This document shows, one piece after another, positions 23,546 through 46,126 of a stretch of DNA of 64,000 nucleotides. This DNA is from Alphaproteobacteria bacterium (GTDB lineage Bacteria > Pseudomonadota > Alphaproteobacteria > SP197). Under the pieces are notes generated by a model. That model worked only from the letters and a program-made list of their open reading frames with translations, ran no database searches and was not told the origin of the DNA. The stretch is from NCBI GenBank assembly GCA_965116515.1, contig OZ220705.1, positions 2,399,565-2,463,564 on the forward strand. Direction: 5' to 3'. Within the stretch, counting starts at the first letter, position 1. The number at the start of each line of letters is the position of its first letter. A program made the position numbers and the translations under genes.

Positions 23546-24544
23546 TCAGGCCCGATCGCCGACGCCTTCCCGTACCCGACGCGCTTTTCCAAGTCCGATC
23601 ACATGAGGGGCCGCAATCGTCTCGTTGTCCGGGAGCGGCTCCTGGCCCGTTGCCTTGGCCTGTTGGTCAACACTCTTGAGCTTGCGCAGCGTGTCGCTGC
23701 CGGCAACGGCTCGCACATCCCCGCCATAGTAGTCGAACCAGGGCATGCCGTGCGCGGCGTATTCCTGTGCCGTCGGAGGTTGTGTTGGCGGCCGCTCTCC
23801 GGTTACCGCCATCCATTGGACGGAGTTGAGCAGCGAGACGAAACAGCGGCTGGCGTGCCGCTGGTCCCAGGCATCGAGCCCGTAGGGATCGTCGTAGATC
23901 TCCTGTTCCATCCGACCGCCTGGTGCAAGGCCCATGCCCATGGACATCTGCACCATGGGTTCCGCCGAAAACAGCACGTCCTCTCGCAACGCGCCCCAGT
24001 TCGATCGGACCGCCTCGTAGCGCTCGGCCTTCATGGGGTAGGCCAACAGCTGAACCCCGCCGTGGACCGCGGCCCCGGTGAGCTGCTCTTCGACCGTGTA
24101 GCCTTCGCCGAGCGGCATGGCAACGAACTGACGGATGACACCTTCCTCCACGCAATAGCCATCGAGCCAGGGCTGCTCGGGCAGCACCGCGTAGTCCTGC
24201 GGGTCGCGGTTCAGCCGTTCGACCCAGGAATCGCCCGTGATCGCGCAGATCTTGCCGGTCGCCACCTTCACGGCGAAGGGATAGTCCGAGTGGAAGTTGA
24301 CCCACATCGCCTCGGCCTGGTGCATCGGCGCGATCACGCCGCCTCGCTCACGCCATGCTTCCGGCAGCCGTGCGGCGTAGTCATCCAGATGCCGGAGCGG
24401 AAACGAGCCCAGGCCCGGCGGCAGCGGATAGTCGTGGCCGTCGTCCGGAATGCGCAGGGTGCGCTGGAACTCGATGGCGCAGCACGCCTCCGCGTGGACC
24501 TCCGGAAAGCTGAATTCCAGGCGGTTGTCTTCAAGCACGATCAT
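23546..24544 (-). CDS. Hypothetical protein (332 aa), no recognisable family. Likely co-transcribed with the upstream XRE regulator.
   Basis: RBS GAGGAG 8 nt before the ATG. This RBS lies inside the last codons of the XRE gene, with a 12-bp gap between the two genes. Confidence 0.6.
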   Translation of the reverse strand: MIVLEDNRLEFSFPEVHAEACCAIEFQRTLRIPDDGHDYPLPPGLGSFPLRHLDDYAARLPEAWRERGGVIAPMHQAEAMWVNFHSDYPFAVKVATGKICAITGDSWVERLNRDPQDYAVLPEQPWLDGYCVEEGVIRQFVAMPLGEGYTVEEQLTGAAVHGGVQLLAYPMKAERYEAVRSNWGALREDVLFSAEPMVQMSMGMGLAPGGRMEQEIYDDPYGLDAWDQRHASRCFVSLLNSVQWMAVTGERPPTQPPTAQEYAAHGMPWFDYYGGDVRAVAGSDTLRKLKSVDQQAKATGQEPLPDNETIAAPHVIGLGKARRVREGVGDRA

Positions 24545-24556
24545 GGGGGTTTCTCC

Positions 24557-24910
24557 TCACCATTTGCCGTCTCGCACCTCGCGCACCACCCGTAGCACCG
24601 CCTCGTCGGGCGCTTCCTTCAACTGACGGATCAGGTCGGCGAACAGGCGTGGACGTTTGCGGATGATGGTCTGCAGGTCGCCGGACACCTTGCCGGCCAG
24701 CGCCAGCATGATGTCCGGATCCTCGCCGAGCTCCTTCGCAAGCCTGACCGCCGTCGCCTCCGACGGCGGTGCCACCTCACCACGCTCGATCTTGCTCAGG
24801 TACGCCGGCTCGATGCCGACCCGCCCGGCCACCTGGCGCACCGAATAACGCCGGTCGTCCTCACGCAGGCGTTCGCGGATGTCGCGGATGGTTTGTCCGA
24901 ATTGCGTCAT
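24557..24910 (-). CDS. XRE-family helix-turn-helix transcriptional regulator (118 aa).
   Basis: HTH_3 pattern (SVRQVAGRVGIEPAYLSKIERGE). Start chosen at ATG 24910, which has no RBS and sits immediately after a consensus promoter (leaderless). Confidence 0.75.
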   Translation of the reverse strand: MTQFGQTIRDIRERLREDDRRYSVRQVAGRVGIEPAYLSKIERGEVAPPSEATAVRLAKELGEDPDIMLALAGKVSGDLQTIIRKRPRLFADLIRQLKEAPDEAVLRVVREVRDGKW

Positions 24911-24916
24911 GTGTCG

Positions 24917-24945
24917 TATATAGTACACGTTATGAGAACTGTCAA
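24917..24945 (-). promoter_or_regulatory. Sigma70-like promoter for the XRE gene: TTGACA, a 17-nt spacer, TATATA, then 6 nt to the ATG (leaderless transcript).
   Basis: Read directly on the minus strand: aacTTGACAgttctcataacgtgtacTATATAcgacacATG. This is the only AT-rich patch in the region. Confidence 0.45.
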
Positions 24946-25427
24946 GTTCCCGGACCAGGCGGATGCAATCGGGAGAGGCCCTGCGGATCCACCCGCCTGT
25001 GCTTGCTGCCTTCCCGGCGGTTCCCGGTTTCGTCACGTCCGAAATCCCGGAGGGGCACACGCGGCCGAAGTGAACTGCGCCCGGGTCGAGGGATCGTTCC
25101 CGTGACTATCAACATCACGCAAGACGACCGCTGCGCCCTTCAGGCGCTCGCCGTCGGTGATGGCAGGTCACGGCCGAGCATCTTCGACCGCGGTTCCTAT
25201 TCCACGTCCGAGACCAGAAGATAGCCGCGGTTTTCGACGGTATCGAATGTCCGCATGGCCGCGATCAGGTCGTCGGACCTGACCCACACCCAGGGCGCAC
25301 CTGCGGTGCTGAACCAAAAGTGTAACACATTGAAACAAAACACGTTCTCTCTCAAGCACTTTCGCCGGGGAAATGGATTCACCTCGTTTCCACTTCCCCC
25401 GGTGCAACAGTAACCGAGGAGAATGCC

Positions 25428-26564
25428 ATGGCGAAGAGCCGTCTTACGCAACGGCGGGTCGATGATCTGACACCGAGAAAGAAGCCCCTGGACGTGCGCG
25501 ATTCCGCCATCCGGGGATTTGGCATCCGTGTCCTGCCGTCAGGCCGCAAGTCTTTTTTCCTCCACAGTCAGGTCGACGGCAAGAGGGTCTGGCAATTGAT
25601 AGGCGATGCTCGCGCCATGACCCTGGAGTACGCCCGGGAACAGGCAACATCCCTACTGGCTTCACGGTGCCGGAGTGATGAAGTATCGCCTGCCGCTACC
25701 GCATCCATACTGTTCGAGGATGTCGCGGATGAGGTCTTCCGCCGTTACAAGCGGCGCTGGAAACCACGGACACTGGAAGTCAACCTCGGCTATTACAGGA
25801 ACCAGATCCTGCCGTGGTTCAAGGGTTACGCCATAGGGGACATCACGCAACACGACATTCGGCGATGGTTTGCTTCGCTCCATGCGACCCCCGTAGCTGC
25901 GGACCGATCGGCGCCGGTTCTCTCCGTGATCCTTCGACAGGCCGAGGTCTACGGATATCGCTCCGAGGGCTCCAATCCTTGCACCGGCATCAAGCGCTAT
26001 CGCCGGCGCAATCGAGAGAAGTTCCTCAACGACGACGAGATTCGGCGGTTGAGCCGCGTTCTCGACAAGAAGGTTGCGAAGCATCCTGTGTTGACCGCGA
26101 TCGTGCGATTGCTTCTCCTGACGGGATGCAGGAAATCGGAAATCCTCAACCTCCGGTGGTCGGACTACCGAGAGGGCAGGCTTTACCTGTGCGACGGCAA
26201 GACGGGGCCGCGCACGGTATGGCTGTCATCGCCCGCGCGCCGGATTCTTGATGGGCTGCCCCGAAGAGGTCACTGGATGTTCCCGTCTCCTCGTGGGGAA
26301 TCCCATCTTTCGAAGGCAACGCTCTACCAATTCTGGCGCGACGTGCGTGCCGAGGCGGGCATGGTCGATGTCCGTTGCCACGATCTGAGGCACACCTACG
26401 CCTCGGTGGCATTGGCCCATGGCGAGACAATTCTCACCATCGGCAGGCTCCTTGGCCACAATGATCCGGCGACTACGCTGAAGTACACGCATCTTGCCGA
26501 CGCTTCGGTCCACGAGGCAGCGGAGGCTCTTGTTCCAATCCTTGGCGGGGAGGGGTGGCCATGA
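25428..26564 (+). CDS. Tyrosine-type site-specific integrase (P4-like, with an N-terminal arm-binding DUF4102-like domain).
   Basis: Catalytic box R...HDLRHTYAS...LGH...Y near the C-terminus; RBS GAGGAG. Confidence 0.9.
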   Translation: MAKSRLTQRRVDDLTPRKKPLDVRDSAIRGFGIRVLPSGRKSFFLHSQVDGKRVWQLIGDARAMTLEYAREQATSLLASRCRSDEVSPAATASILFEDVADEVFRRYKRRWKPRTLEVNLGYYRNQILPWFKGYAIGDITQHDIRRWFASLHATPVAADRSAPVLSVILRQAEVYGYRSEGSNPCTGIKRYRRRNREKFLNDDEIRRLSRVLDKKVAKHPVLTAIVRLLLLTGCRKSEILNLRWSDYREGRLYLCDGKTGPRTVWLSSPARRILDGLPRRGHWMFPSPRGESHLSKATLYQFWRDVRAEAGMVDVRCHDLRHTYASVALAHGETILTIGRLLGHNDPATTLKYTHLADASVHEAAEALVPILGGEGWP

Positions 26565-27709
26565 CGCGGAAGATGCGTTTGAGCGATCGCACTGTTGCCC
26601 GGCTCGGTGCGGCGTCGATCGAATACACGGTGTGGGACATGCGGATCACGGGTCTCGGTGTCAGGGTCCGGCCTTCCGGCCACCGGTCGTTCGTTGTGCT
26701 GGACGACCGTAAAGGCCCCTCGAAACGCCGGGCTCTCGGTCCCGTGACACACATGACCGTCGACGAAGCGCGGTCCCGGTGTCTCGCCATTCAGTCCAGC
26801 GACATGGACCTTCTCGACGACAAGCCCCCGGTTCCCGTGCCGCTCTTCCGCGACTTTGTCGCCAACGCCTGGCGATCCGAATGTTTCGATCGTCTCAAGC
26901 CATCCACTCAGCGTCGGACCCGCAGTGCACTCAGAAATCATCTGTTGCCGGCCTTCGGTGACATGCCGCTCGACCGGATCGGACGAAGGGAGGTGATGGC
27001 GTGGTTCGATACCTACAGTGGAGTGGCGCCAGGCGGCGCCAACCGGGTTCTCGATGCGCTGCGCCAGATTCTCAGTTACGCGGTGGCTTACGGTCACATC
27101 AAGACCAATCCGGCAAGCGGATTGCGTCGGAACCCGAAACGCAAGTTCAACCGGTTCCTGTCCCGGGACGAGGCCCGCCGCCTGCATGCCGAACTGGACC
27201 AATTGGTTGCCGAACGGCCAGCGCGGACGGCACAGGCCGACATCATCCGCCTGCTCTACTGCACGGGATGCCGCTGCAGCGAGATCCGGACACTCAGGTG
27301 GTGCGAGGTCGGCACGGCCACCCTTGATCTTGAGGACAGCAAGACGGGCCCGCGGAAGGTCTACCTGAACAGCGAGGCCCGGCGGATCATCGAACGCCAG
27401 CCCCGGACTGGCAGCGACTACGTCTTTCCGTCCTCATCCGATCCGACCCTGCCCGTATCGGAATCCATGCAACTCTGGTTCACCCTCCGCAAGCGGGCCG
27501 GCATCGATGATGTTCGTCTCCATGATTTGCGTCACAACTATGCCTCGCAAGCTGTTCTGAACGGTGTTCCGCTTCCGACCGTGGCGCGGCTGCTTGGTCA
27601 CCAGCAGGTTTCGATGACCCTACGCTATGCGCATGTTGCCGACCGGGAAGTCGAGGCTGCAGCCGAACGGATCGGAGGTGCAATCTCGGCAATCTGCCTG
27701 GGAGTCTGA
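26561..27709 (+). CDS. Second tyrosine-type integrase, a paralogue of the upstream one in tandem; overlaps its stop.
   Basis: HDLRHNYAS...LGHQ...Y motif. Same architecture as the first integrase but only about 35-40% identical. Confidence 0.9.
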   Translation: MTRKMRLSDRTVARLGAASIEYTVWDMRITGLGVRVRPSGHRSFVVLDDRKGPSKRRALGPVTHMTVDEARSRCLAIQSSDMDLLDDKPPVPVPLFRDFVANAWRSECFDRLKPSTQRRTRSALRNHLLPAFGDMPLDRIGRREVMAWFDTYSGVAPGGANRVLDALRQILSYAVAYGHIKTNPASGLRRNPKRKFNRFLSRDEARRLHAELDQLVAERPARTAQADIIRLLYCTGCRCSEIRTLRWCEVGTATLDLEDSKTGPRKVYLNSEARRIIERQPRTGSDYVFPSSSDPTLPVSESMQLWFTLRKRAGIDDVRLHDLRHNYASQAVLNGVPLPTVARLLGHQQVSMTLRYAHVADREVEAAAERIGGAISAICLGV

Positions 27710-27786
27710 CGGATTTGAGCAATGCGGTTCCCCTTGTATCATGGTGCCTCAAGATGCCATGTCCAAACGATCGGGGAGTGTGATTC

Positions 27787-28836
27787 ATGAGCGTACTGGC
27801 ACATGTCGTTCTTGAACAGGGCGAGCCCGCTGCAACGCAGGCCCTGGCCTACATACTCAACTCGCATCCGGAGATCGCACGGGCGTTCGTCGGACTGTTG
27901 CGAGATGCCAATATCGAGTTCGAGCCCGGGCGCGTCGAGGCCGAACAGGGCATTGAAGACGGCTGTCCGGACCTGACGATCCACGACAGCGGGGGTCGTG
28001 TGCGGATCTTCGTGGAAAACAAGTTCTGGGCCGGTCTGACCGACGCGCAACCGGTATCCTATCTCAGGGACCTGCCGGAGGATCCTCCCTCCGCTCTCAT
28101 CTTTGTCGTTCCCGAACAGAGAGTGTCCACGGTCTGGAACGAACTCGGCCGGCGATGCGGACAAGCGGAACTCGAATGGGAGGACACGTTCAGCTACGGC
28201 TCCGTGAAGAGTGCCCGGGTCGGCCGCAAGACCCTGTTGATCGCCAGCTGGAGGGTCATCCTGGAGAGACTGCGGGACACCGCCCGCTCGGCGGGACACG
28301 ACACCATCGAAAACGACATCCTGCAGTTGCAGGGGCTGACGGGCCGGATAGATTCAGAGGCGTTCCTGCCGCTCCGCGAGGAAGAGGGCACCGATCAGGA
28401 GACGGCGCGCCGCCTGGTCAACTACGTTGAATTGATCGAGGACATCATCAGCAAACTCGTAGACGCCGAAATCGCCGACATCGAGGGATTGCGAGAGGGC
28501 CAAACCTATCATTTCACCGGCCGTTACTTTCGCATCCACGCATACGACAAATTCGAATCAAGGCTCGGGATTGACCTCCTTGCGTGGCGTGACGAGGGCA
28601 TCTCCCCTTTGTGGTGGAGGTTCAGCCCAAAGACCGGAGTTGTCGGCGACCACTTCAAGGCAATCCCCGAACTCTTCAATGACGTGAGGCGTCGCCACGA
28701 CGGGCTGCATGTTCCCATCCGCCTCAAGACCGGCGTCGAAAAGGACAAGGTCATCGACGACGCCGTCGCGCAGATGAAACGAGTTGCGGACAAAGTGCTG
28801 AAGACAGTTCCACGCCAGAAGCCCGCGCTCCGCTGA
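27787..28836 (+). CDS. Hypothetical protein with an N-terminal PD-(D/E)xK nuclease-like motif (349 aa).
   Basis: Motif CPDLTIHDSGGRVRIFVENKFWAGLTDAQ (D...E-x-K spacing typical of the restriction-endonuclease fold). RBS GGGGAG; first gene after the integrases. Confidence 0.6.
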   Translation: MSVLAHVVLEQGEPAATQALAYILNSHPEIARAFVGLLRDANIEFEPGRVEAEQGIEDGCPDLTIHDSGGRVRIFVENKFWAGLTDAQPVSYLRDLPEDPPSALIFVVPEQRVSTVWNELGRRCGQAELEWEDTFSYGSVKSARVGRKTLLIASWRVILERLRDTARSAGHDTIENDILQLQGLTGRIDSEAFLPLREEEGTDQETARRLVNYVELIEDIISKLVDAEIADIEGLREGQTYHFTGRYFRIHAYDKFESRLGIDLLAWRDEGISPLWWRFSPKTGVVGDHFKAIPELFNDVRRRHDGLHVPIRLKTGVEKDKVIDDAVAQMKRVADKVLKTVPRQKPALR

Positions 28837-28890
28837 AAGGGCAAGACCGCCCGGTCCGCTTGCCGGGACCAGGCCGGACGAGCACGGGCA

Positions 28891-29817
28891 TCATCGGACA
28901 TTTCGTCCGGGCTCGCTGCCGACGACTGTGAGCCAGGCAGGATCGCCGTCTTCCCGAGTGGTCCAGAAATCATCGCTCACGCGCTCGTCGTATGAGCCGG
29001 GCGTCTCCATGCCGAGATGCCGGTAGAAGTCCGTGTCCCCGGGCTTTCCTCTGTAGTACATGAGAATGGCCAAGCCGCCAGGCTTGAGAAGCCATCGGAC
29101 CTTCCTGGACACAAGTTCGGGCGCGCCGATGTAGGAAGGCACGCCGCAGAGAGCGACGACCAGATCGAACCTCTGACGCGGCTTCGGCCAGTAGTCCTCG
29201 AACGCCGTGCGGATCAGACGGCCGCGAAACTCGGGGTGCTTGTCGCCGAAGACACCGAGCATTCCCCGGCTGGGATCGATACCGGCATAGTGCTCCGGAT
29301 CGACATGCCCGAACCTGAAATCGACGAGAGTTCCGGTGCCGCAGCCGATGTCGAGAATGTCGGCATCGGGCTCGATCTCAAGTGATTCGTAGACCCGCTT
29401 GCTCCGCTCGATATCAGATTTCTTCCTGTGCACTCCGAGATCGTAAGCGTCGGCAACGGCCGCATAGGGATCGAATGAAGGCTCATGAATGGCCCTGTTG
29501 ATGAGGATGTGGTCGACGCTCGCCCCCATCGTCCAGTACTTGTAGCCGTTCGCGGAGAAACGACGATACCAGTAACCCCTGAAGAACTCCTCGATGCGCT
29601 CCACGGCCCTCATCTTCCTGAGAGCCTCGACGAACTGACCCTCTGCACGCCATGTGCTCTTGAGCGTGTAGGAATGCGGTGCGCCGGGCATCGTCTTGGC
29701 GAACTGGTACGGGTAATTCTCCAGAAGCTCGGTCAGTTCCGCACAGGTATCGAAGACCGTTTCGCTCCATTCCGGAGCGGTCTCGACAGGACGAAATCTC
29801 TCGTTGTGGAGCGTCAT
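28891..29817 (-). CDS. Class I SAM-dependent methyltransferase with a ~140-aa N-terminal domain of unknown function. This is not a DNA MTase (no (D/N/S)PP(Y/F) motif).
   Basis: Motif I ILDIGCGTG, post-I acidic residue, LLKPGG; ATG 29817 after RBS AGGGGA. Convergent with the PD-(D/E)xK gene. Confidence 0.75.
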   Translation of the reverse strand: MTLHNERFRPVETAPEWSETVFDTCAELTELLENYPYQFAKTMPGAPHSYTLKSTWRAEGQFVEALRKMRAVERIEEFFRGYWYRRFSANGYKYWTMGASVDHILINRAIHEPSFDPYAAVADAYDLGVHRKKSDIERSKRVYESLEIEPDADILDIGCGTGTLVDFRFGHVDPEHYAGIDPSRGMLGVFGDKHPEFRGRLIRTAFEDYWPKPRQRFDLVVALCGVPSYIGAPELVSRKVRWLLKPGGLAILMYYRGKPGDTDFYRHLGMETPGSYDERVSDDFWTTREDGDPAWLTVVGSEPGRNVR

Positions 29818-30105
29818 GTCCTTGTCCCCTGTCAATGTCGGTCAACTCTGATTCACGCGATCGGCGATTTGTGAGTATCGCAACACCATTGACACGCAAC
29901 GATAGCCTGGCCGCATGGCGCCCTTCGAGAAGGGAATGCCGGCAAGGACAGCATGCGCGGCCACGGCATTGCGCAAGGTGTGGTTATCAGCGGTGGCGGA
30001 CTTCCTCGTCAGAGTGGGTCTGCAGATAGTGGTTGAGGTGCGCACTGCGTGTCCCCCGGGCTTCCTTGATCTCCTCGCTCTGTTCCTTGAGCACTCGAAG
30101 AAGGG

Positions 30106-31511
30106 TCATGTCGCGGCGCAGACGGGCTGGGCGAAGAGTATGTCTCGCGGATGTTCGCCGTGTGGAAAGGCCGCGTACCTCGCGAGGCCGGTCTCGTCTG
30201 TCGTTGGTTCGTCAAGGCGGGCGAGCACGTCTCGGCGGGCAAGGCGATAGGCGTCGGCTTCGTCGCGATCAACTCGATACGTGGCGGCGCGAACCGCAGG
30301 GCGTTGCAGGTGGCGACCACAGGACGTCCGATCTTTGATGCCTGGTCGGATGAGCCATGGGTGATCGACGGCGCGGCGGTGCGGGTGTCTCTGGTCTGCT
30401 TCCCCGGGACTGGCGATGCAGACAGGCCGGAGTTGCGCATGGACGGAGAACCCGTCGACGAAATCCATCCCGACCTCACGGCCACGCGCGGCGGGGTTGG
30501 GATCGACCGGAGCGAGCCCCAACGCATCCCTGCGAACATCGGAGCCGTCTTCATGGGCGATACCAAGAGCGGGCCGTTTGACGTTCCCGGAGAACTCGCT
30601 CGGGAGTGGCTTCGCCTTCCGTCGAATCCGAATGGCCGCCCGAATTCCGATGTTCTGAAACCCTGGGTCAACGGCATCGACCTTACCCGCCGTCCGGCGG
30701 GCAAGTAGATTGTGGATTTCGGATGGGAAATGTCGGAGACGGAAGCGACGCTCTACGAAGCACCTTTCGCGCACGTCAGGGAACACGTCTGGTCGATGCG
30801 ACAGCGGAACCGGGCACCGGCAGTCAGCAAGATCTGGTGGCGGCATGAGCGCCCAAGGCCGGAGATGTGGCGGGCGCTGAACGGACTGCCTCGCTACATC
30901 GTGGCCCCTCGCGTTGCCAAGCATCGCTTGTTCGTATGGTGCGATGCTCGCGTTTGCCCCGACAGCACGACCATCGCTATCGCCCGCGACGACGATGTGA
31001 CCCTCGGCATTCTGCACAGCCGGTTTCATGAGGCATGGTCGCTGCGGTTCGGGACGTGGCTCGGCAAGGGCAACGACCCGCGCTACACGCCCACCCCACC
31101 TTCGAGACTTTCCCTTTCCCGGGCGGTCTGTCGCCGGACATTCCCGCCACCGACAACGCGGCCGACCCGCGCGCCGTCGCCATTGCGGATGCGGCCAGGA
31201 GATTGGTCGAGTTGCGCGACCGCTGGCTCAACCCGCCCGAATGGGTGGAGTGGGTGGACGAGACGGTTCCCGGCTATCCGAAACGCCCTGTCGCCCGTGA
31301 TGAAGCAGCGGCGAAGGAACTCAAGGCCCGCACGCTGACCAAACTCTACAATACCCGGCCGCGGTGGCTCGATGATGCCCAACAAGCGCTCGACGCTGCC
31401 GTGGCGGCGGCCTACGAGTGGGATGTGGGAGTTTCCGAGGACGACGCGCTCGAGGCGCTGCTGATACGGAACCGGACGGAACCGGGATCCGCTGGACGGA
31501 CCGGACAATGA
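30106..31511 (+). pseudogene. 3' remnant of a type IIG restriction-modification / MmeI-PglX-like methyltransferase gene (helicase-like and TRD/C-terminal region only). It has an internal stop at 30706-30708 and a frameshift near 31085.
   Basis: Family-typical segments NSIRGGANRR, FDAWSDEPWVIDGAAVRVSL, TFETFPFP and the C-terminal KLYNTRPRWLDDAQQALDAAVAAAYEWD are spread over three frames. The N-terminal nuclease and MTase catalytic domains are absent. Confidence 0.7.
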
Positions 31512-33455: not shown

Positions 33456-34684
33456 TACCAAACCAACTAAGTGATGACTCTTGCGAATGATTCGCATTTG
33501 TATCGTATATGTTGGGTGTGATCGGTGGGGTTATCCTCTATTCTGTGGTTGTCGAGAACACAGAAGGAGGAGCCCATGTCGGCGAAGATCGCTGTGACGC
33601 GCACCGACCACACCCCTGAGAGCCTACGCAAGCTGGCGTTGTCGCACAAGTATCGAGACTGCCGGAGCCGTCTGCGGGCGCTGGCGTTGATGATTGAGGA
33701 CACCTTGTCTCGCGCCGAGACATCGCGTCGTGTCGGCGTTGATGTTCAAACCCTGCGCGACTGGGTTGTGCGCTACAATGAAGCGGGTGTTGACGGCTTG
33801 CGTGATGCTCAACGCCCGGGCCGCCCGCCGAAGTTGGACGCACGTCACAAGGCGCAACTCGTGGCCTGGATGGATGCCGGCCCGGACCTTGACGCCGGCG
33901 AGCCGTGCTGCTGGACGGTTGGCGACATCCGGCGTTGGATCAAGTGCCGCTTTGACATGGACTTCACCCTGGAGGGTGTGCGCCGGATGATCCACCGTCT
34001 CGACTTCCGGCATATGTCTCCACGGCCGATCCACCCTCGGGCAAAGCCTGAGGATCAGGAGAACTTCCGGCAGAACTTCCAACAGTTGGCGATGGCGGCC
34101 CTTCCTGAGGGCGTGTCTGGCAAGGATGTTCTGGTGTACTTCCAGGACGAGGCGCGCATTGGTCAGAAAGGGATGCTCTCACGGGTGTGGGCACGAAAGG
34201 GCACACGCCCGCGCATACCGCGGGACTACCGGTATGGCTACGTCTATCTGTTCTCGGCAGCCTGTCCCGAGACCGGCAACGCGGTCGGACATGTCTGCGA
34301 CAAGGCCAACACCGACGAAATGAACCGTCATCTGCGGGACGTCAGCAGCACGCTTCCCGAGAGCAAACATGCCCTGATGGTCCTCGACGGGGCAGGCTGG
34401 CACCGATCGAAGGACCTGGACATTCCGGCAAACGTCTCACTGCTCCGATTGCCGCCGTACAGTCCGGAACTGAACCCCACCGAAACGCTCTTCTCCGTCC
34501 TGAAACACCGACGCTTTGCGAACCGGGTGTTCGAAAGCGCCGAACATGTCAGGAAAACCGTGACCGAAGTATGGGACACCTTCAGCCACAACTCCGAGGA
34601 AATCATCCAGATCACCAGACGGCAATGGGCCAAAATATGAAATACAGACACAATCGCATCGGTGATTACTTTGTTGGTCTGGTA
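33456..34684 (+). mobile_element. IS630-family insertion sequence (~1.23 kb) with imperfect ~25-bp terminal inverted repeats and a TA target-site duplication.
   Basis: Left end TA|CCAAACCAACTAAGTGATGAC..., right end ...GTTGGTCTGG|TA (reverse complement CCAGACCAACAAAGTAATCAC). TA flanks at 33456-57 and 34683-84. GC content is lower than the surroundings. Confidence 0.75.
33576..34640 (+). CDS. IS630-family transposase (winged-helix HTH plus DDE_3).
   Basis: Strong RBS AAGGAGG. DDE_3 pattern (LVYFQDEARIGQKG ... VLDGAGWHRS ... LPPYSPELNPTE). Confidence 0.85.
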   Translation: MSAKIAVTRTDHTPESLRKLALSHKYRDCRSRLRALALMIEDTLSRAETSRRVGVDVQTLRDWVVRYNEAGVDGLRDAQRPGRPPKLDARHKAQLVAWMDAGPDLDAGEPCCWTVGDIRRWIKCRFDMDFTLEGVRRMIHRLDFRHMSPRPIHPRAKPEDQENFRQNFQQLAMAALPEGVSGKDVLVYFQDEARIGQKGMLSRVWARKGTRPRIPRDYRYGYVYLFSAACPETGNAVGHVCDKANTDEMNRHLRDVSSTLPESKHALMVLDGAGWHRSKDLDIPANVSLLRLPPYSPELNPTETLFSVLKHRRFANRVFESAEHVRKTVTEVWDTFSHNSEEIIQITRRQWAKI

Positions 34685-34804
34685 TAATACTGGCTGCGGT
34701 GATGGCTGATGGACTGGTCCCGACCACCAGCAATTCCCGCAACTCCATGGAGACAGTGGACGGCGGCCGGCCATCCCGCGGCGGGGATTCGAGGAGCCTG
34801 TTTC

Positions 34805-35653
34805 ATGATTCGAATTGTTTGCTGGAACATCGACAAGCGTGCCGAGCCCTGGCGTGAACTGGTCGAGATGGCGCGCGGGGACGAGGCCGATGTCGCACTG
34901 GTGCAGGAAGCATGCAGGCCGCCCGACGATGTTGCACCCCTTGTCTTCTACGAGAACGATGTCTTCTGGGGCCGGGGCTTGTTCGATCGCTGGCCCCTTG
35001 TGGTGAGACTGTCGGAGCGGGTCGACGTGGAATGGTTCAGGCATGTGGCTCCCGTGAGCGAGCTGGGCGAGAACGAAATCGGTGTCAGCGGCATCGGAAC
35101 GATCGCCGTCGCCCGTGTCGCACCGCGCGGCCGACCGGGTGAACCGTTTATCGCCGTCTCGATGTATGCGCGGTGGATGAATGTCTGTGAGCCAGGCGGA
35201 AAGTCATGGTGCAATTCGGATGCCTCGGCGCACCGTATCCTTTCGGACCTGTCGGCATATGCGGGTTACGACGACTGGATCGGTCACCGCATTCTGGCGG
35301 CGGGTGATCTGAACATGTTCCATGGCGCAACGGGCAAGAGACTCTCGCTCCCCGAACGCGAGCGCACGGTCTGGAACCGCTTCGCGGCGCTCGGGCTCGA
35401 GTTTCTGGGACCGCAGCTCCCGAACGGCCGTGCATCGCCAATGCCCCAGCCCGACGTGCCGATCGACACCGGAAATGTCCCGACGTACTACACCCCGCAG
35501 CAGAAATGCGCGGAGAACGCCAACCGGCAACTTGACTACGCCTTTGCCTCGCGCGGCTTCCACGAACGGGTGAACGTCCGAGCGATGAACGGTATCGAGG
35601 AGTGGGGGTCGAGTGATCATTGCCGGCTCCTGATCGAGGTGGACCCGGGGTAA
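34805..35653 (+). CDS. Endonuclease/exonuclease/phosphatase (EEP) family protein; no signal peptide.
   Basis: EEP motifs (IVCWNI N-terminus, C-terminal SDHCRL). Start at ATG 34805 after RBS GAGGAG. Confidence 0.75.
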   Translation: MIRIVCWNIDKRAEPWRELVEMARGDEADVALVQEACRPPDDVAPLVFYENDVFWGRGLFDRWPLVVRLSERVDVEWFRHVAPVSELGENEIGVSGIGTIAVARVAPRGRPGEPFIAVSMYARWMNVCEPGGKSWCNSDASAHRILSDLSAYAGYDDWIGHRILAAGDLNMFHGATGKRLSLPERERTVWNRFAALGLEFLGPQLPNGRASPMPQPDVPIDTGNVPTYYTPQQKCAENANRQLDYAFASRGFHERVNVRAMNGIEEWGSSDHCRLLIEVDPG

Positions 35654-35732: not shown

Positions 35733-36025
35733 TCAGCATCGACTGCGGCACCAATAGAGCGAGTGCCGTTTGACGTTCTTCATGCTTGCCAGTGCCTGGG
35801 GGTGTAGACGAACTCGAAGCCGTTCCACAACGCCTTGGCCTCGTCCGGCGGGTAAGCTTCGTAGAGGGCGCCGGATTGATGGGTGATGAGATTGTCCATC
35901 ACCAGAGTGATGGTGGTGGCGTCCTGAGAGCGCTCGGCGATGTTGGCCAGGAACTGCGCCCAGTCGATCTTGGTCCTGCGCTTGCCGGCCAGAGGCTCTG
36001 TGGCCATGAACACGTTGCAGATGCC
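35733..36025 (-). pseudogene. C-terminal remnant (~95 aa) of a Tc1/IS630-superfamily DDE_3 transposase, different from the intact IS630 copy.
   Basis: YEFRRCG...LVMDNLITHQSGALYEAYPPDEAKALWNGFEFVYTPRHW matches the DDE_3 C-terminus (LDNxSxHK ... FHFTPxHxSWLN). The N-terminal part is absent and the 3' end is frameshifted. Confidence 0.55.
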
Positions 36026-36269
36026 GCACCGTCGAAACTCGTAGTCCTTGCACCGGTCGACGGGAGGATGGCGCCTTGCCGCTCCGTCCTGGACGGCAGC
36101 GCAAACCGAGCGATCATCTCCTTCCCCGATGACCCGCAGGTATCGCCATGCAGCCGCAACGCAATCGGCGATTCGGATTGCTGCTGCCCCGCAAGGAAGC
36201 TGTGTCACCCGGAATTCGGTCAGCCGCGTCCCAGCCGGACGCCGGTTCGACCGCACACCCCGGCGCGGT

Positions 36270-38813
36270 TCAGAATGCGCGGCGCCAGCGCATCAGCAGT
36301 ATTGCCTCGTGCTCGCCCCGGACGTGTCCCGCGTCGCGCGAGGCGACCGCCGCCAGGTGCGCCTGGCCGGCCACCGCAAGGGGGCGGGACCAGATTAACT
36401 CGAGGTCGATCTGGCGGCCCGAGGGTTCCAGGTCCAGGGACGCCCGTTCGACCCATACGCTGCCGTCGGGGAGCCGGCCCGATACCCAGCTCAGCCGCGC
36501 CTCTCCCCCCTCGACGCGCAACGGCTGGGAGAGGCGCAACGCCAGCTTACCCCCGGCACGGTCCACCCCTTTGCCGACCAGGCCGAGCGCGAACGCACCG
36601 GTCCACAGCGCTGACACGTCCTCCACCATGCCGTGTCCCGAACTCCCCGCGCGACTCAGGCCCGCATGGGCGCTGGCGAGCAGGCTCCAGCGCCCGTTGA
36701 GGCGCCGATGCGCCGAGAACCCCGCCATGACGGTATCCCCGCCCAGCGCGCCGAACGCCCCGCGCGACCGGCTGCCGACCGGCCCCTGAGGCTCCGCAAG
36801 CCATCCCGCCTGCACCGCGAGACCGGGTAGCAGGGAATCGGAGAAACGGTACTCGGCAAGCACGCCCGCAGCTGCGTCGCCCTCGCCAGCCCGCCGCTCG
36901 CCGTACTGCGCCGTTCCCCGGAAGGCGGCGATACGGATTGCGGCCTCGCCGAGCGCGCCCGCATAGCCGATGCTGGCGCCGTCGCGGGCGAAGCCGGAAA
37001 AGGGATTGGCGAACGCCGCGTCGTCGGTGAACGTGCCGGAATCGACCGGGCCGCCCTCCGCCGCGCCGGAGCCGGCATGCAGGCCGAACCGCCAGCCCGG
37101 ATGGGCGCGGTAGCTGAACAGCAAGCGTCCGTTGCCGATCTTCCGTGTCAACCAAAGCGAACCGATCGCGCCGGGAGCCGGGCCGGCGGCATCCGGAACG
37201 CCCTCGCCGGTCGGGGAACCAGGCGTCGTTGCAGCGCCGGTCCCGGACGGGAAGGCATCGAGGCGCAGCCGGATCTCGCCATCTTCCGCGCGCCAGACCG
37301 CGCCGCGCGGATCGCGCCCCAGGGCCCTCAGACGGTCCCCGAGGCGCGGCCGGGCGAGCCCATCGCGCCGAAGATGGTCGCCTAGCGGACGGAAGAACGG
37401 CGCATCGAGCGCGTCGAAGCTCGCGACCTCGCGCGATGCCAGCCCCCGTGTCAGGGAGTCGCCGAAGGCTGCGCCCATGTGGAAGACGCTGGCGGCGCCC
37501 GGCGCCGAAGCACCGGACAGCGAGCCTGCGGTCAGCATCCGCGTCTCGCCCACCGGCCGGGTCGCGGCGTCGAGGTCCAGGAACCCCTGGCCGTAGGTGT
37601 CGGAGTCGGCGTATGCCCCCGACCGGTCGGCGGTGGCGAGCAGGCGCGCGACGATCTCGTCGTTGCCGAGCTGGCCGCGGAAGTGCTGAGCGAGCAGCCC
37701 GATCCCGCCGGTGACGAAAGGCGCGGCCGCGGACGTGCCGGCCTCCTCGAAGGCGAGGTAGCATTCCGGTGTGCCGGCCGGACAGTAGTAGCCGGGCACC
37801 GGACCGGCGACATCCACGCCCAGCGCGGCCAGGCAGAAGGCCTTCGCGATGCCGCAACGACTGGAGAACGGTGCGATCCGGCCTTCCCGGTCCGTCGCCA
37901 CCACCGCCAGCGAATGGCCGCGCAGCTCCGGAATCCGCACCGGCAGCCCGGCCGCAATCTCGACCGAGCTTGCGGGGTCGGCGGAGCCGTTGGGATCGCC
38001 TTCTCCGCCGGCATTGCCGGCCGCCCAGACATAGATCGTGCGTGCGCCGGCCGGGGTGTCGGCTTGCGCGATGGCCTCGATCACGTTGGAAAAGCGCCCG
38101 CGCAGTTCCCCGGCATCGAAGTCCTCGATGTTCCCGGGCAGGCCGAAGCTGGCATTGATGGCCGTTGCTCGGCCGTTCAGTCGTTGGAAGGCCGAGGCGA
38201 TCTGTCTCTCGAGGCCAGCCTCGAGGTTGCGGATCAAGTTCGGAAGGTCGCGGACCTGATCGGGCGTGGGGTTCTCGCCGAGGATGTCCTCAAGGTGTTC
38301 GCCGACGTCGCGGAAGCCCACCGAGATCACGTCGGCGTCGAACGCGACGCCATGGATCGCCGATGCGCTTCCGGCGTTCACATCGGCGGTCGCACCCCGG
38401 CTGGCCGCCATGATGCCGGCGACGAAGGTGCCGTGCCCTTCCAGGCTCTGGCAGGTGCCGTGGGCGTCCAGGTTGTCGCAGGCATCGAAGTCGGGGTCGT
38501 AGCCCTCGACGTTGGCACTCTCCAGCTTGCCCGCGAACTTCGCATGGCCCGGATCGACCCCGCTATCGACGATACCGAGCGTGACCCCTTCGCCGGTCGC
38601 GCCCCGCGCATAGGCATGGTGCGCCTTGATCCGGGCCAGGCCGTACTGGTTGCGGAACTCCGGGTGCTCCGCGTACGCGCGCCGACGCTCCGCCTCGGAT
38701 TCCGGAATCCCGGGTTCCGCCAGGACCGGGTGCATGGAAGACCTGTCCCCTGTTCCTGCGCAGGCCGTGACGATCAGTGCCAGCCCGGCCGCCAGCATCC
38801 ACATCCGACCCAT
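36270..38813 (-). CDS. Subtilisin-like (S8) serine protease autotransporter with a lipoprotein signal (NalP/SphB1-like architecture).
   Basis: Lipobox LIVTAC. S8 catalytic triad context (GIVDSGVD ... HGTFVAGIMAA ... GTSAAAPFVTGG). C-terminal beta-barrel translocator ending ...MRWRRAF. Confidence 0.85.
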   Translation of the reverse strand: MGRMWMLAAGLALIVTACAGTGDRSSMHPVLAEPGIPESEAERRRAYAEHPEFRNQYGLARIKAHHAYARGATGEGVTLGIVDSGVDPGHAKFAGKLESANVEGYDPDFDACDNLDAHGTCQSLEGHGTFVAGIMAASRGATADVNAGSASAIHGVAFDADVISVGFRDVGEHLEDILGENPTPDQVRDLPNLIRNLEAGLERQIASAFQRLNGRATAINASFGLPGNIEDFDAGELRGRFSNVIEAIAQADTPAGARTIYVWAAGNAGGEGDPNGSADPASSVEIAAGLPVRIPELRGHSLAVVATDREGRIAPFSSRCGIAKAFCLAALGVDVAGPVPGYYCPAGTPECYLAFEEAGTSAAAPFVTGGIGLLAQHFRGQLGNDEIVARLLATADRSGAYADSDTYGQGFLDLDAATRPVGETRMLTAGSLSGASAPGAASVFHMGAAFGDSLTRGLASREVASFDALDAPFFRPLGDHLRRDGLARPRLGDRLRALGRDPRGAVWRAEDGEIRLRLDAFPSGTGAATTPGSPTGEGVPDAAGPAPGAIGSLWLTRKIGNGRLLFSYRAHPGWRFGLHAGSGAAEGGPVDSGTFTDDAAFANPFSGFARDGASIGYAGALGEAAIRIAAFRGTAQYGERRAGEGDAAAGVLAEYRFSDSLLPGLAVQAGWLAEPQGPVGSRSRGAFGALGGDTVMAGFSAHRRLNGRWSLLASAHAGLSRAGSSGHGMVEDVSALWTGAFALGLVGKGVDRAGGKLALRLSQPLRVEGGEARLSWVSGRLPDGSVWVERASLDLEPSGRQIDLELIWSRPLAVAGQAHLAAVASRDAGHVRGEHEAILLMRWRRAF

Positions 38814-39000
38814 CTGTCCTCCGAGCGAGTCCCGGCGATTCGCACCGCCGCGATGGTAATCCCATCAACATGCGCCCGGCAATCCCGGTGCGGTTGATCC
38901 GCGCTCGCGGTGGTGATGGTGTCGGCACCGCGAGCGCTGGCATCGGAGACGCGGTGCGCGGCATCGCAACGGTAGGGGCCGTTCCGTCGGAGGCACGACG

Positions 39001-39219
39001 ATGTGGCTGACCAACTACGCGCTTCGGGTGCTGATGTACATCACCGTCAACGGCGAGGGGCTCGCCACGATCCGGGAGACTGCGGAGCGCTACGGCATCT
39101 TGAACAGCCACCTGACCCGGGTGGACCGGGACCTCGGCCGCGCCGGGTTCGGCGAGACGGTTCGCGGTCGGGGCGGCGGGCTGAGGCTGGCGAGGTCGGC
39201 ACCGACACTATTGATCTAA
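39001..39219 (+). pseudogene. N-terminal fragment (72 aa) of an Rrf2-family transcriptional regulator, truncated at a junction with an integrase fragment.
   Basis: MWLTNYALRVLMYITVNGEGLATIRETAERYGILNSHLTRVDRDL matches the Rrf2 wHTH; the ORF stops exactly where integrase-derived sequence begins. Confidence 0.6.
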
Positions 39220-39473
39220 CTGACGGCAAGACAGGACCACGGAAAGTCTACCTTAACAGCGAAGCCCGAGGGATCATCGAACGCCAACCCCGAACGGGCA
39301 GCGATCATGTCTTCCCCTCGCCCTTCGATCCAACGTCGCCGATATCGGCGGGATCCATGCAACTCTGGTTCACCCTCCGCAAACGGGCCTGCATTGAGGA
39401 CGTGCGTCTCCATGATTTGAGGCATTATTCCCGGATTCGGCTTATTCCGGGTATCCTGGGCATGAACTCTTGA
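39210..39473 (+). pseudogene. 3' fragment of a tyrosine integrase gene, homologous to nt 27330-27560 of integrase 2.
   Basis: Encodes ...DGKTGPRKVYLNSEARGIIERQPRTGSDHVFPS...MQLWFTLRKRACIEDVRLHDLRH then diverges. About 80% nucleotide identity to the integrase-2 segment. Confidence 0.7.
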
Positions 39474-39553
39474 ATCGGCGTGACTTCAACATGTTGTGCT
39501 GGTTGATGAGGGTTGAAGTTCCGGGATAATCCGGTGGTCTTCTCCTGCTGGCA

Positions 39554-39850
39554 ATGTCGCCAGCGAAAAGGAGAAGAGCGATGTCAATAGAGTATTACTT
39601 CCCCAGCCGAACCAGCCAGCGGTGGTTGGGTGTCGGTCCACTGGCCGAGGATCTCGACCAGTTCGCCGCGTCCCTTGCGGCACAGCGATATGCCCGCCAA
39701 TCGGCGGCAAGCAAGCTGCGGCTCGTGCGCAATCTCAGTCGGTGGCTCGAGCACCAGGGCCTGGGGATCGAAGCACTTGACGAACCGCGCAGCCGCCTGC
39801 GTTCCGGGCGCGCTTATCGGCGCACGCCATGCTTCACCAACGCGCGGTGA
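39554..39850 (+). pseudogene. Possible N-terminal (SAM-like domain) fragment of another tyrosine recombinase, truncated by the end of the giant autotransporter gene.
   Basis: Weak similarity to phage-integrase N-terminal core-binding domains; the ORF runs into the opposite-strand giant CDS. Confidence 0.3.
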
Positions 39851-42800
39851 TCTCGAACCCGACCGTGTGCTCCGGCGCAGTCCAGTCGTTCTTGCTGCGC
39901 GTCGCGCGTACGCTGAACGACAGATCCGGCGCGTCCGCTTCCGGCGTCAGCCGCCAGCCGAGGCTGTAGTCGCGCTGGTCGGCGGCAAGACCGAGCCCGG
40001 CATGCGGACTGCCGGTCCAGCGCTCGCCGAGGGCCGGCAACCCCCAGGCCGCCTCCAGCGTCCAGCGGGACGCGGCCTCGCTGCCCGCGCGATCCTCCAG
40101 CATCGCCGGCTGGAACAGCGCGTCGAGGCCGCCGGTGGCCTGCCCGCCGAACTCCTGGCGCAGGCTCAGCGACGGACCCCGCCCGCTCGCCGGGTCCGGA
40201 TCGAAGGCAAGCGAGGCCGCATAGCCCCGGTCCTTCAGGTCGTCGTTGCCGTGCGCGATCAGCGTGCGGCCCGAGACGTCGAGCGACAGGCCCAGCGCCG
40301 GGTCGCTCCACGCGATCCCGCCGCCGATCTCGACCCCGAAGCCGGTCTCGGCGTCGCCGCCGTCATGGCGCGCGCCGATCTCCAGCTTCGGCACAAGGCT
40401 GCCGCCGCCTTCAAGGGCCATGCGGTAGCTGCCCTCCAGGCCGAGCCTGAGCCGGGTCGCGTCGGAGTCCGACGTCGCGAGGTCGCGGGTCTTCTCAGAC
40501 GAGGTCCGCGTCCACAGCGCGTCCGAGGTCACCGCCAAGGCGGGACCGCTGCCCTCCGCCGGGAGCGCCAGCAGGTCGCCCCTGAGGCCCGCCGCCGCCA
40601 TGCTCCAGCTGGTGTCGGACTTGTAGCTGCCGCCGAGCGCGGTCTTCAGCGTCACCTCGCCCGTGCCATAGCCCGCCGCGCCCCAGAGCTTCAGACGCTC
40701 CGAAGCCTGCAACGCCGCATAGGGGATCGCCGCCGTCAGCGACGCCTCCACACTGCCGTCGCCCGCGCGCAGGGCGCCGCTGCAAAGACCGCTGTCCACG
40801 CCGTCGGGACAGCTCTGGCCGTCGGGACGGGGGCTGACATCGCTGTCGCGGTAATCGCCCTCGCCCGCGCTCTGCACGAGCGCCAGGCCGACCAGCCACT
40901 TGCCCCGGACATAGTCCGCGCCCAGCATGCCGGTGGTGACCGTGCCGTCGAGCGAGAACGTCCCCTCGCGGCCGTCGAAGCTGCTCTGCGCCGCCCGGCC
41001 CCAGAACGCCATGCTGCCGCCCGAGCCGTCCGCCGCGCCGGTCAGCGAGAAACTCGAGCCCAGCAGCGCCTCGCGGCCCGTCATGCCGCGCGATTGCGGC
41101 TGCATTCCGTCGAAGCCGCTGCCGAACCCGGCCGCGTCATGACCGAAGCCGCCCGGGCCGGACTGGCCGCCGAACGCCTGCACGACATCGGCCAGCGCCC
41201 GCGCGCCGGTCCCGCCCGGAACAGCGGCGCCGTCCGGCGCATGAGCCGGAGCCGCACTGCCGTTGGCGGCCGGATCGGACGAGAGCGCCTGCCCGGCGAT
41301 CGAGCCCTGCATGCCGGGTGTGCGGTCCGCCGCCATGCGGCCCGCGATCCCGTCCAGCGCCTGCTCCGCAACCGTGCGGGCGAACCGCGCCAGCCACGCC
41401 GCCGGCATCGGGTCGTCGTTCACAATCGTCCCCACCCCCACCGCGTCCGCAATCGGCGCCCCGCTCGCGCTCCACAGCACGAACTCGAACGTCTCCGCCT
41501 CCTCGTCATGGGAGTCGTCGTAGATGTACACCCACACCCGCTTCTCGGTCTCGCCCGCGCGAAAGCCGAGATTCCAGCTGTTGGCAAGGTAGTCCACGTT
41601 CGCTTGCGCCGACACAGGCGTCGACTCGCGGGTTCGGTAGTGCACCGTCACCGGGCGCTCCGACGGGGCGCTGAGCCGGATGGTGAACCACATCAGCCCT
41701 TCGCCTTCCTTCACCGTCGCGTCGGCCACCGAGAGCACCGGACCCGCCGCCGCGTCGTCGTCCGACACCGACACCGTCGCCGCGCCCCGCGAGGACGAGA
41801 CCGTGTAGCCGTCGCCGTCCTTCAGCGTCACCGTGACCGAGCCGTCCGGCTCGTCCACCGCATCGTCCACCGTGGGAACGGAGAAGACCGCCCGGGTCGC
41901 GTCCTTCGCGATCGTCACGCTCCGCGAACCCTCGTCGTCCGCCGCCACATGGTCGCTGCCCGCGGCCTCCGTGACCGAAAGGGTCACCGTCAGATCCGCA
42001 TCCGGCGCGCGGTCCGCGGTCAGCGTGAACGGCGCCGCGCCGCCCTCCGTCACCGACGCCGCATCCGCCGTAATCGACACCGCGGGCGGCGGCAGGTCGT
42101 CGTCTTCGATGGACACGCTGCCAGACGCGGAGGAGCCCACCGTGTAGCCGGCGCCGGCCGCCACCGAGACCGTGACCGAGCCGTCCGGCTCGTCCACCGC
42201 ATCGTCCGCCGTGGGAACGGAGAAGACCGTCCGGGTCTCGCCTTTCGCAATCACGACCGTCGCCGTGCCCTCGTCGTCCGCCGCCACATGGTCGCTGCCC
42301 GCGGCCTCCGTGACCGAAAGGGTCACCGTCAGATCCGCATCCGGCGCGCGGTCCGCGGTCAGCGTGAACGGCGCCGCGCCGCCCTCCGTCACCGACGCCG
42401 CATCCGCCGTAATCGACACCGCGGGCGGCGGCAGGTCGTCGTCTTCGATGGACACGCTGCCAGACGCGGAGGAGCCCACCGTGTAGCCGGCGCCGGCCGC
42501 CACCGAGACCGTGACCGAGCCGTCCGGCTCGTCCACCGCATCGTCCGCCGTGGGAACGGAGAAGACCGTCCGGGTCTCGCCTTTCGCAATCACGACCGTC
42601 GCCGTGCCCTCGTCGTCCGCCGCCACATGGTCGCTGCCCGCGGCCTCCGTGACCGTGAGCGTCACCGTCAGGTCCGCATCATGTGCGCGGTCCGCGGTCA
42701 CCGTGAACGACGCCGCGCCGCCCTCCGTCACCGACGCCGCAGTCGCCGTAATCGACACCGCAGGCGGCGGCAGGTCGTCGTCCGCTATGGACACGCTGCC

Positions 42801-46064: not shown

Positions 46065-46080
46065 GCGGACGCAGCAAGGG

Positions 46081-46125: not shown

Positions 46126-46126
46126 T

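Follow-up and report, generated by a model that had tools for sequence, protein, structure and literature searches.

Within a 64,000-nucleotide stretch of the genome of an alphaproteobacterium (GenBank contig OZ220705.1, positions 2,399,565 to 2,463,564 of the forward strand; hereafter the window), a gene for a predicted PD-(D/E)xK nuclease (gene A) converges on a gene for a predicted S-adenosylmethionine (SAM)-dependent methyltransferase (gene B). We conclude that A–B is a real, horizontally spreading pair and probably an uncharacterised anti-phage module. The predicted functional link between the two genes is not methylation as such but an unnamed domain of about 100 residues at the N terminus of B, here called Ndom, which gene fusion and operons connect with at least three families of PD-(D/E)xK nuclease.

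A profile of A found 79 species-representative loci, and full-length B is convergent to A in 8 of these, with the two 3′ ends −13 to +85 nucleotides (nt) apart. Convergent pairs occur in the window and at L001, L005, L007, L010, L013, L018, L020, L021, L022 and L054; L026, which has the same two integrases as the window, retains only a remnant of B beside A. The genes that flank the pair define at least five unrelated contexts in Alpha- and Gammaproteobacteria, and the pairwise identities of A and of B are correlated (Spearman 0.87), with B more conserved than A. Many further clusters of A and B sit on contigs of matching size. Because both families are rare, chance adjacency is negligible. 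A–B is a co-inherited, horizontally mobile unit. The first-pass annotation of this DNA, made from the letters alone, had asked whether the two genes are always found together elsewhere: they recur as a convergent pair and travel as a unit, but the pairing is facultative and B also occurs alone.

In place of B, a stand-alone Ndom gene lies beside A in 14 of the 79 species loci, which brings the loci with an Ndom-bearing neighbour of A to 23 (29%); at the remaining loci A is solitary or tandem. Solitary A is found between housekeeping genes at L002 and L003, and the nearest neighbours of A at 77 loci are mixed (housekeeping genes, five DDE transposases, HepT, McrBC and IstB). No alternative cognate methylase was found among 142 nearest-neighbour open reading frames (ORFs) of solitary A, although ORF calling is crude in high-GC (guanine plus cytosine) DNA. 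An alignment of B against metagenomes was swamped by the generic LDIGCGTG pattern and gave no useful B loci, and the share of B genes with A alongside rests on matching contig sizes and a few locus inspections. Solitary copies of B lie near type ISP restriction–modification and GmrSD genes, or near FitAB, Fic and DruA genes. One of them (L004:10001-20259) is in a defence island with a TPMT-like methyltransferase, a 1603-amino-acid (aa) type ISP enzyme, an AAA_15/DUF3696 ATPase and a GmrSD_N protein; an integrase fragment similar to those of the window lies 1 kb from this B, and the same 2.45-Mb genome has a solitary A about 1.15 Mb away. A literature search on the A–B pair or the phage cassette described below found nothing specific.

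A search of 5.8 billion proteins returned 713 homologue clusters of A, the best 120 of which are 41–100% identical to it and nearly all unnamed proteins from metagenome assemblies. Across 39 aligned homologues (40–86% identity), E13, P61, D62 and E77 never vary, and N78 and K79 reach a conservation of at least 90%, so that the PD…ExK motif (P61-D62…E77-N78-K79) first noticed at the N terminus of the 349-aa protein is borne out across its relatives; W267, P274, W276, P310 and L313 are invariant in the C-terminal part. An AlphaFold2 (AF2) model with a predicted local distance difference test (pLDDT) score of 81 has a helix at 12–26, strands at 47–52, 63–67 and 72–78, a helix at 90–95 and a strand at 103–108, the canonical alpha-beta-beta-beta-alpha-beta order, in which D62 opens strand 2 and E77-x-K79 ends strand 3; beyond this core come a helical linker and another alpha/beta domain. 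By this modelled fold order and its conserved Asp and (D/E)xK, A is assigned to the PD-(D/E)xK superfamily. PF14281 (PDDEXK_4), a family without an assigned function, matches A of the window weakly (E = 0.0057; 17.1 bits for a gathering threshold of 22.3) and 30 of the 39 family members over the catalytic core (best 3.3e-5), and leaves the C-terminal 150 residues of A outside. Foldseek against the PDB gave weak matches only, to the PD-(D/E)xK-like YaeQ (E 0.008) and the restriction enzyme EcoT38I, and the A profile matched no PDB sequence. The C-terminal domain, which has no Pfam match and is not detectably DUF4268, may serve in DNA binding or recognition.

Purifying selection acts on both genes (ratio of non-synonymous to synonymous substitution rates, 0.24–0.50 for A and 0.28–0.35 for B), which are therefore not chance ORFs; about one in six copies of A among the profile loci is truncated or frameshifted. 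Tandem copies of A occur at about ten loci (A–A gene pairs at L045, L046, L051, L055, L056, L058, L059, L063 and L083). There are also fusions of A to a partial A, 538–548 aa in length (P0112, P0113 and P0120), in which the first copy is without the catalytic Lys (EAA or ETA for ENK) and the second keeps ENK. These sequences suggest heterodimer-like nucleases in which one subunit would be inactive.

Gene B encodes 308 aa from its ATG, with an identical product in a public protein collection (P0387) and 122 homologue clusters in the protein search. Residues ~145–256 match five Pfam families (Methyltransf_12, 25, 23, 11 and 31) above the gathering scores and the first ~140 residues match none, in agreement with the initial description of B as a class I SAM methyltransferase with an unassigned N terminus. 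Motif I (LDIGCGTG), D181, F217-D218, G225 and S228 are conserved, and the AF2 model (pLDDT 88; predicted template modelling score 0.89) sets Ndom apart as a separate alpha/beta domain. Foldseek assigns a probability of 1.0 to many class I methyltransferases, with lipid, small-molecule and RNA methyltransferases as the top PDB matches (E ~1e-8) and as the closest matches in NCBIfam. On these motifs and this model, B is assigned to the class I SAM-dependent methyltransferases. It has neither motif IV, (D/N/S)PP(Y/F/W), nor PCQ, and the loop after strand 4 reads G-[VA]-[PA]-S-[YH]. The Rossmann domain of B bears a weak likeness to mad2 of the MADS system in PADLOC (E 2.6e-8, profile positions 280–403 of 492). 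Membership of MADS was rejected: the match covers a generic SAM-binding region, there are no other mad genes, and phage Ndom-methyltransferases match mad2 equally weakly.

Residues T42, P47, H48, Y50, W95, M97 and N107 of Ndom are invariant in the alignments of B and of Ndom, and its motifs are TMPxxPHxY, GYKYWTM and INR. PADLOC 2.0 covers neither A nor Ndom, and searches of Pfam, PHROGs and PDB sequences returned no match for Ndom. A phmmer search with Ndom of 1.8 billion representatives gave 698 matches (clusters) of two main architectures, proteins of ~260–300 aa that join Ndom to a methylase and stand-alone proteins of 90–140 aa; fusions include ParB_N-Ndom-methyltransferase, HTH_3-Ndom, DUF433-Ndom-Ndom and Ndom-Ndom. 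The Ndom of B superposes on a 93-aa viral protein with a template modelling score of 0.78 (rank 44). A sponge-type stand-alone family comprises 1290 clusters, the best 120 of which are at least 76% identical across phyla. Ndom is better conserved than its partner nucleases, and its polar and aromatic invariants persist whichever of three nuclease families the partner belongs to.

The association of Ndom with nucleases extends well beyond the window. A hidden Markov model (HMM) of the Ndom of B located a stand-alone ORF of 100–150 aa on the same strand beside A, often overlapping it, in the 14 species loci mentioned above, which belong to Acidobacteriota, Gammaproteobacteria and Verrucomicrobiota. 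A natural fusion, WP_011190363.1 (452 aa), consists of a full-length A homologue (hhalign against A: Prob 97.9%, E 4.4e-13, 322 columns; motif PD…EGK) and a C-terminal Ndom. Its gene adjoins parA/trfA on a conjugative plasmid, the large plasmid of Desulfotalea psychrophila LSv54 (NC_006139.1, 4608-5966; L263:3942-5300); the protein is annotated as ‘hypothetical protein’ and was found only through its Ndom part.

Ndom also accompanies nucleases other than A. Three of four sponge-type members examined lie 4–58 nt upstream of another PD-(D/E)xK protein of ~300–340 aa; the fourth has no nuclease alongside. One partner family has the motif D…IENQ…HLGQ and a C-terminal DUF4268 (14 places), and another is a NucS_C protein with D…EIK (6 places). 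The partner nucleases match the PADLOC candidate PDC-S11 (E 5e-88 and 9e-79 at L243 and L250, and 1e-25), and a small ORF with an ASCH domain, a PUA-like reader, precedes some of the operons. PADLOC lists PDC-S11 as a single-gene candidate, and its accessory Ndom gene seems undescribed. The two-gene operon of Ndom (~110–120 aa) and nuclease is widespread in sponge metagenome contigs (L242-L255 and L257-L262), often amid transposases.

The other setting of Ndom is viral. Whole-length homologues of B (P0227 and P0228; 37–42% identity) occur in marine phage contigs in the order ParB_N, Ndom-methyltransferase, an unannotated or DNA-methylase-like ORF, 3′-phosphoadenosine-5′-phosphosulfate (PAPS) reductase/DUF3440, ParB_N, terminase and portal. 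A scan of IMG/VR gave 132 viral stretches with Ndom, from which 80 loci were kept (L093-L172). Ndom is stand-alone in 64 of these and fused to a methylase in 16. Within 3 kb of it there is a ParB-type gene at 76 loci and a PAPS-reductase gene at 73, and ParB lies immediately upstream in at least 57. Small unannotated ORFs and, frequently, DNA methylases with a DPPW motif lie between Ndom and the PAPS reductase. The result is a highly conserved cassette that precedes the terminase genes: ParB_N, Ndom either alone or joined to a class I methylase, small ORFs and DPPW methylases, PAPS_reduct/DUF3440 and ParB_N. We take such ParB/PAPS-reductase cassettes to be IbrA/IbrB-like, with a predicted role in DNA modification. 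Among cultured phages, only the Microbacterium phages Leaf and Dewdrop have Ndom (region gp158-gp159). There the ‘methyltransferase’ gp158 holds the domain, with an acetyltransferase on one side, a PAPS_reduct/DUF3440 ‘adenylyltransferase’ on the other and two glycosyltransferases before it (in Leaf, L173, 92934-95332). Direct searches for A found none in viral contigs, cultured phages or plasmids.

Homologues of A are almost confined to metagenome-assembled genomes (MAGs) of sponge and coral symbionts from many phyla, among them Candidatus Poriferihabitaceae, Arenicellales, Vicinamibacterales, Bryobacterales, Rhodothermales, Longimicrobiales, Binatia, Paracoccaceae, Acidimicrobiia and Verrucomicrobiota. 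Several of the MAG series stem from sponge genome projects; others, with the bin labels APA, RHO, CAR and Plut, presumably come from sponge and coral metagenomes. The genome of the window, a 4.7-Mb contig, is probably that of a symbiont of this type. High identity across phyla together with a synonymous divergence of ~0.5–1.2 between these copies is consistent with horizontal spread, and the A family appears to have spread in this way over at least eight phyla. Some contexts of A or B hold restriction–modification, GmrSD, Abi or transposase genes. With this patchy multi-phylum distribution, varied contexts and a sizeable share of degraded copies, the pair is not a housekeeping operon. None of the three findings that the first-pass annotation had named as telling against its proposal (genes that never co-occur, PD-ExK residues that are not conserved, a housekeeping operon) was obtained.

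Our preferred reading, which we hold tentatively and place somewhat below an even chance, is that A–B is a defence-type module of nuclease and modification enzyme with a shared recognition domain, similar in plan to restriction–modification. A would act as a PD-(D/E)xK endonuclease, and B would be a SAM methyltransferase coupled to A through Ndom. Ndom most likely recognises a feature of DNA, be it a site or a modified base. As part of B it would bring methylation to that feature; acting in trans or in cis, it would guide or permit cutting by nucleases of the A type. In the window the simplest outcome would be that B places a mark on DNA and that A cleaves whatever DNA departs from the mark state of self. 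DNA as the substrate, Ndom as the recognition module, the defence function and methylation that protects rather than sensitises are all steps that we infer. The defence-type reading gains support because Ndom also accompanies the PDC-S11 nucleases. In layout and logic there is a parallel to type II restriction–modification systems (in logic also types I and III), with a convergent nuclease and SAM methyltransferase in a mobile unit and the methylase the more conserved of the two; like HsdS of type I systems, Ndom may be a shared recognition module. Unlike in type II systems, B is outside the DNA-methylase families, A is often without a methylase, and recognition would fall to a novel domain that elsewhere has a small gene of its own.

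Several results weigh against this reading. In about 70% of the 79 species loci A stands alone or in tandem, and no methylase recurs beside it. At the prfB–PBP1A site A is accompanied by B in L005, L010 and L013 and is intact without B in L002/L008, a persistence unlike that of a classical restriction endonuclease, which needs its protecting methylase. In classical type II systems the nuclease is always with its cognate protecting methylase; A is not. B matches no DNA-methylase family (N6_N4_Mtase, N6_Mtase, DNA_methylase or MT-A70) in Pfam, NCBIfam or PADLOC, its methylase domain resembles enzymes that act on small molecules or RNA, and DNA is a possible substrate from gene context only. The original statement that B is ‘not a DNA MTase’ accordingly agrees with the missing signatures; it is nevertheless unproven, given that, outside the symbionts, the nearest homologues of B are phage genes set among those for ParB and DNA methylases, and that a ParB-Ndom-methyltransferase triple fusion exists. 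Furthermore, A has no PADLOC match; the structure matches of B are dominated by the Rossmann domain, so the fold of Ndom is not comparable separately; and DNA binding, methylation and cleavage are predictions from sequence and context. The strongest objection is that A is usually solitary and survives the loss of B, which fits a self-safe, modification-dependent nuclease.

On that explanation, A would be a self-sufficient, type IV-like nuclease and Ndom an accessory reader of the phage DNA hypermodification made by ParB/PAPS-reductase cassettes, a possibility that we rank second and rate as less likely than not. B would then be a reader captured from phages, whose methylase acts on a phage-type modified base or independently, does not protect self and plays a secondary part. 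Solitary intact A without a partner methylase is the norm, and its survival at the orthologous prfB site would be expected of such an enzyme. PDC-S11, MdgA and MdgB are, like A, single proteins of ~300–350 aa with an N-terminal PD-(D/E)xK core (Glu near 77–82) and a C-terminal accessory domain, are usually stand-alone genes, and in sponge symbionts PDC-S11 has the same Ndom gene directly upstream. The DUF4268-bearing nucleases MdgA and MdgB have been shown by experiment to be antiphage and modification-dependent (bioRxiv 10.1101/2025.02.28.640651), and DUF4268 associates with GmrSD type IV enzymes. The ASCH ORF before some Ndom–nuclease operons, the nuclease::Ndom fusion, which is typical of type IV enzymes that join a nuclease to a reader, and the abundance of Ndom in viruses from which A is absent point the same way. 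However, A does not belong to the PDC-S11/DUF4268 family by sequence. That assignment was rejected since no HMM of PDC-S11 or DUF4268 matches A or its 39 homologues, and hhalign aligns the two families over the catalytic core only (Prob 1–5%; C-terminal halves, Prob 0.1%). A has ENK whereas they have ENQ, MdgA and MdgB are described as single genes without a methylase partner, unlike A–B, and a modified-DNA substrate for A is only hypothetical. This explanation also leaves unaccounted for the co-inheritance of A with an apparently active, constrained methylase in a convergent, restriction–modification-like layout.

A more ambitious variant, which we regard as doubtful, starts from the phage side. 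Ndom may be an unrecognised reader for the hypermodification made by ParB/PAPS-reductase (IbrAB-like) cassettes. Phages would employ this reader to steer modification enzymes of their own, the fused methylase among them, and sponge symbionts would have captured it repeatedly to arm unrelated PD-(D/E)xK nucleases (the A family, PDC-S11/MdgA-like and NucS_C-like proteins) against phages of this kind. A–B would then be a system to ‘read, methylate and cut’ without a described counterpart. B resembles the phage cassettes in that it is a full-length homologue of the phage Ndom-methyltransferase, and Ndom, alone or fused to a methylase, is a near-constant companion there (73 of 80 loci with PAPS reductase). 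Unlike those cassettes, the window and related symbiont loci have no ParB or PAPS reductase nearby, and a PD-(D/E)xK nuclease of a family not found in viral contigs takes the partner's place.

It is improbable that the pair is a toxin–antitoxin or immunity module in which Ndom, alone or as part of B, blocks the nuclease by binding to it and the phage versions serve as an antitoxin mimic or inhibitor of host nucleases. Such a module would account for the small Ndom gene directly 5′ of the nuclease with a spacing of 4–8 nt, a typical type II layout, for the fusion of Ndom to an XRE-type helix–turn–helix (HTH) and to DUF433, as in many antitoxins, and for surroundings rich in insertion sequence (IS) elements. 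Against it, the nuclease is mostly solitary, nuclease and Ndom form one polypeptide on the Desulfotalea plasmid, and Ndom, more conserved than the nucleases, has a fixed place in phage modification cassettes and occurs fused to methylases. Invariants that are kept across three nuclease families suit a common ligand better than protein inhibition. Taken together, the A::Ndom fusion and the partner-independent invariants are better explained if Ndom serves in recognition or binds a ligand than if it inhibits one particular protein. We rejected a type II toxin–antitoxin assignment for A–B, because solitary A is common, A::Ndom is a single polypeptide and the genes of the window are convergent rather than an operon. 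The first-pass annotation had proposed an uncharacterised defence or toxin-immunity module: the defence half gains support through the PDC-S11 connection, and the toxin-immunity half is weakened because of the solitary copies of A and the natural fusion.

We also think it quite unlikely that the interaction between A and B is indirect or absent, as for an orphan nuclease and, for example, a metabolite or RNA methyltransferase hitch-hiking in small mobile islands of sponge symbionts: each gene does occur without the other, the methylase domain is closest to non-DNA methyltransferases and the Ndom-methyltransferase by the glycosyltransferases of phage Leaf could serve glycan modification, but fixed convergent geometry in so many contexts, correlated divergence, the rarity of both families and the independent association of Ndom with nucleases as operons and a fusion argue against this.

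An ORF scan recovered A and B at the coordinates given in Table 1, with 54 nt between their stop codons and a Shine–Dalgarno GGGGAG 8 nt 5′ of the ATG of A. A terminator scan of the spacer called no canonical terminator; its inverted repeat is possibly a bidirectional terminator, judging from the sequence.

Table 1. Features of the A–B locus and its surroundings in the window (positions are those of the 64,000-nucleotide stretch)
Feature	Position	Strand	Description and basis
Gene A	27787..28836	+	349 aa, PD-(D/E)xK nuclease (predicted), N-terminal core and C-terminal alpha/beta domain
A, PD-(D/E)xK core (residues 1-190)	27787..28356	+	Conserved residues and AF2 topology
A, catalytic residues (predicted)	E13 = 27823-27825, D62 = 27970-27972, E77 = 28015-28017, K79 = 28021-28023	+	
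A, C-terminal domain (residues 200-349)	28384..28833	+	Conserved residues, AF2 model
Promoter-like site 5′ of A	27715..27742	+	TTGAGC-16-TATCAT; weak: 2 sites versus 0.4 expected
Spacer between convergent stops	28837..28890	.	54 nt; GGCAAG...CTTGCC inverted repeat, read by eye
Gene B	28891..29817	-	308 aa, Ndom and class I SAM methyltransferase (predicted)
B, Ndom (residues ~15-115)	29473..29775	-	Alignments; alpha/beta domain
B, SAM methyltransferase domain (residues ~140-260)	29038..29400	-	Rossmann fold; Pfam, Foldseek
Two tandem tyrosine integrases	25428-26564 and 26555-27709	+	Pfam; 378 and 384 aa, 37% mutual identity
Integrase C-terminus remnant directly upstream of B	29857..30006	-	45% identical to second integrase (int2) residues 312-364
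MmeI-like type IIG restriction–modification remnants, frameshifted and N-terminally truncated	30151..31511	+	PADLOC REase_MTase_IIG 1.9e-28 and 1.1e-42; MmeI_C
Second integrase fragment	39192-39455	+	74% identical to int2

The neighbours of the pair are those first described, two tandem integrases with a P4-type arm domain and a degraded type IIG restriction–modification gene (Pfam and PADLOC). Both integrases have an N-terminal Arm-DNA-bind_3 (P4-type arm-binding) domain followed by SAM-like and catalytic domains (Pfam). The significance attached to this integrase-proximal position was not supported: integrases lie beside A in only 3 of the 85 loci used for this count (the window, L001 and L026), and the position is incidental. 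The integrase fragments, the degraded type IIG gene and an IS630-type transposase make the region a mosaic of decayed mobile elements. The transposase (DDE_3) and an Exo_endo_phos protein lie at 33525-35653 (+), as judged from the Pfam labels of the syntenic genes of L001. A 332-aa ORF without a Pfam match adjoins an XRE-type HTH gene (23546-25060, −) between a FAA hydrolase gene, the last housekeeping gene, and the first integrase; this arrangement is kept in L001 and may be left-end cargo or a regulator of the integrative element. GC content is 0.70–0.74 at 36–38 kb and 40–43 kb, 0.53 at 50–51 kb and 0.62–0.65 elsewhere, and these jumps in composition (36000-49000 and 50000-51000) suggest further foreign segments. 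No tRNA gene was found within the window. The other ORFs at 23.5–33 kb have no Pfam match to P4 genes (two have no match at all), in a scan that was not aimed specifically at P4 genes. Inverted or direct repeats flanking A do not exceed chance, and A was accordingly rejected as an IS- or transposon-like element.

By the mechanism that we infer, A–B would work like known nuclease–methylase or reader–nuclease defence systems; the surprising element is an unnamed domain that is common to phage modification cassettes and several host nuclease families and is expanded in sponge symbionts. The A family is a marker for sponge and coral microbiomes, and the cultured strain of Desulfotalea that encodes WP_011190363.1 and the Microbacterium phages Leaf and Dewdrop are tractable entry points. 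If the reading is true, it would offer a handle on what the widespread ParB/PAPS-reductase cassettes of phages do to DNA and on how single-gene PD-(D/E)xK defence nucleases such as PDC-S11 and MdgA choose their targets, and one domain of ~100 residues would link phage DNA-modification cassettes to host nucleases across the arms race.

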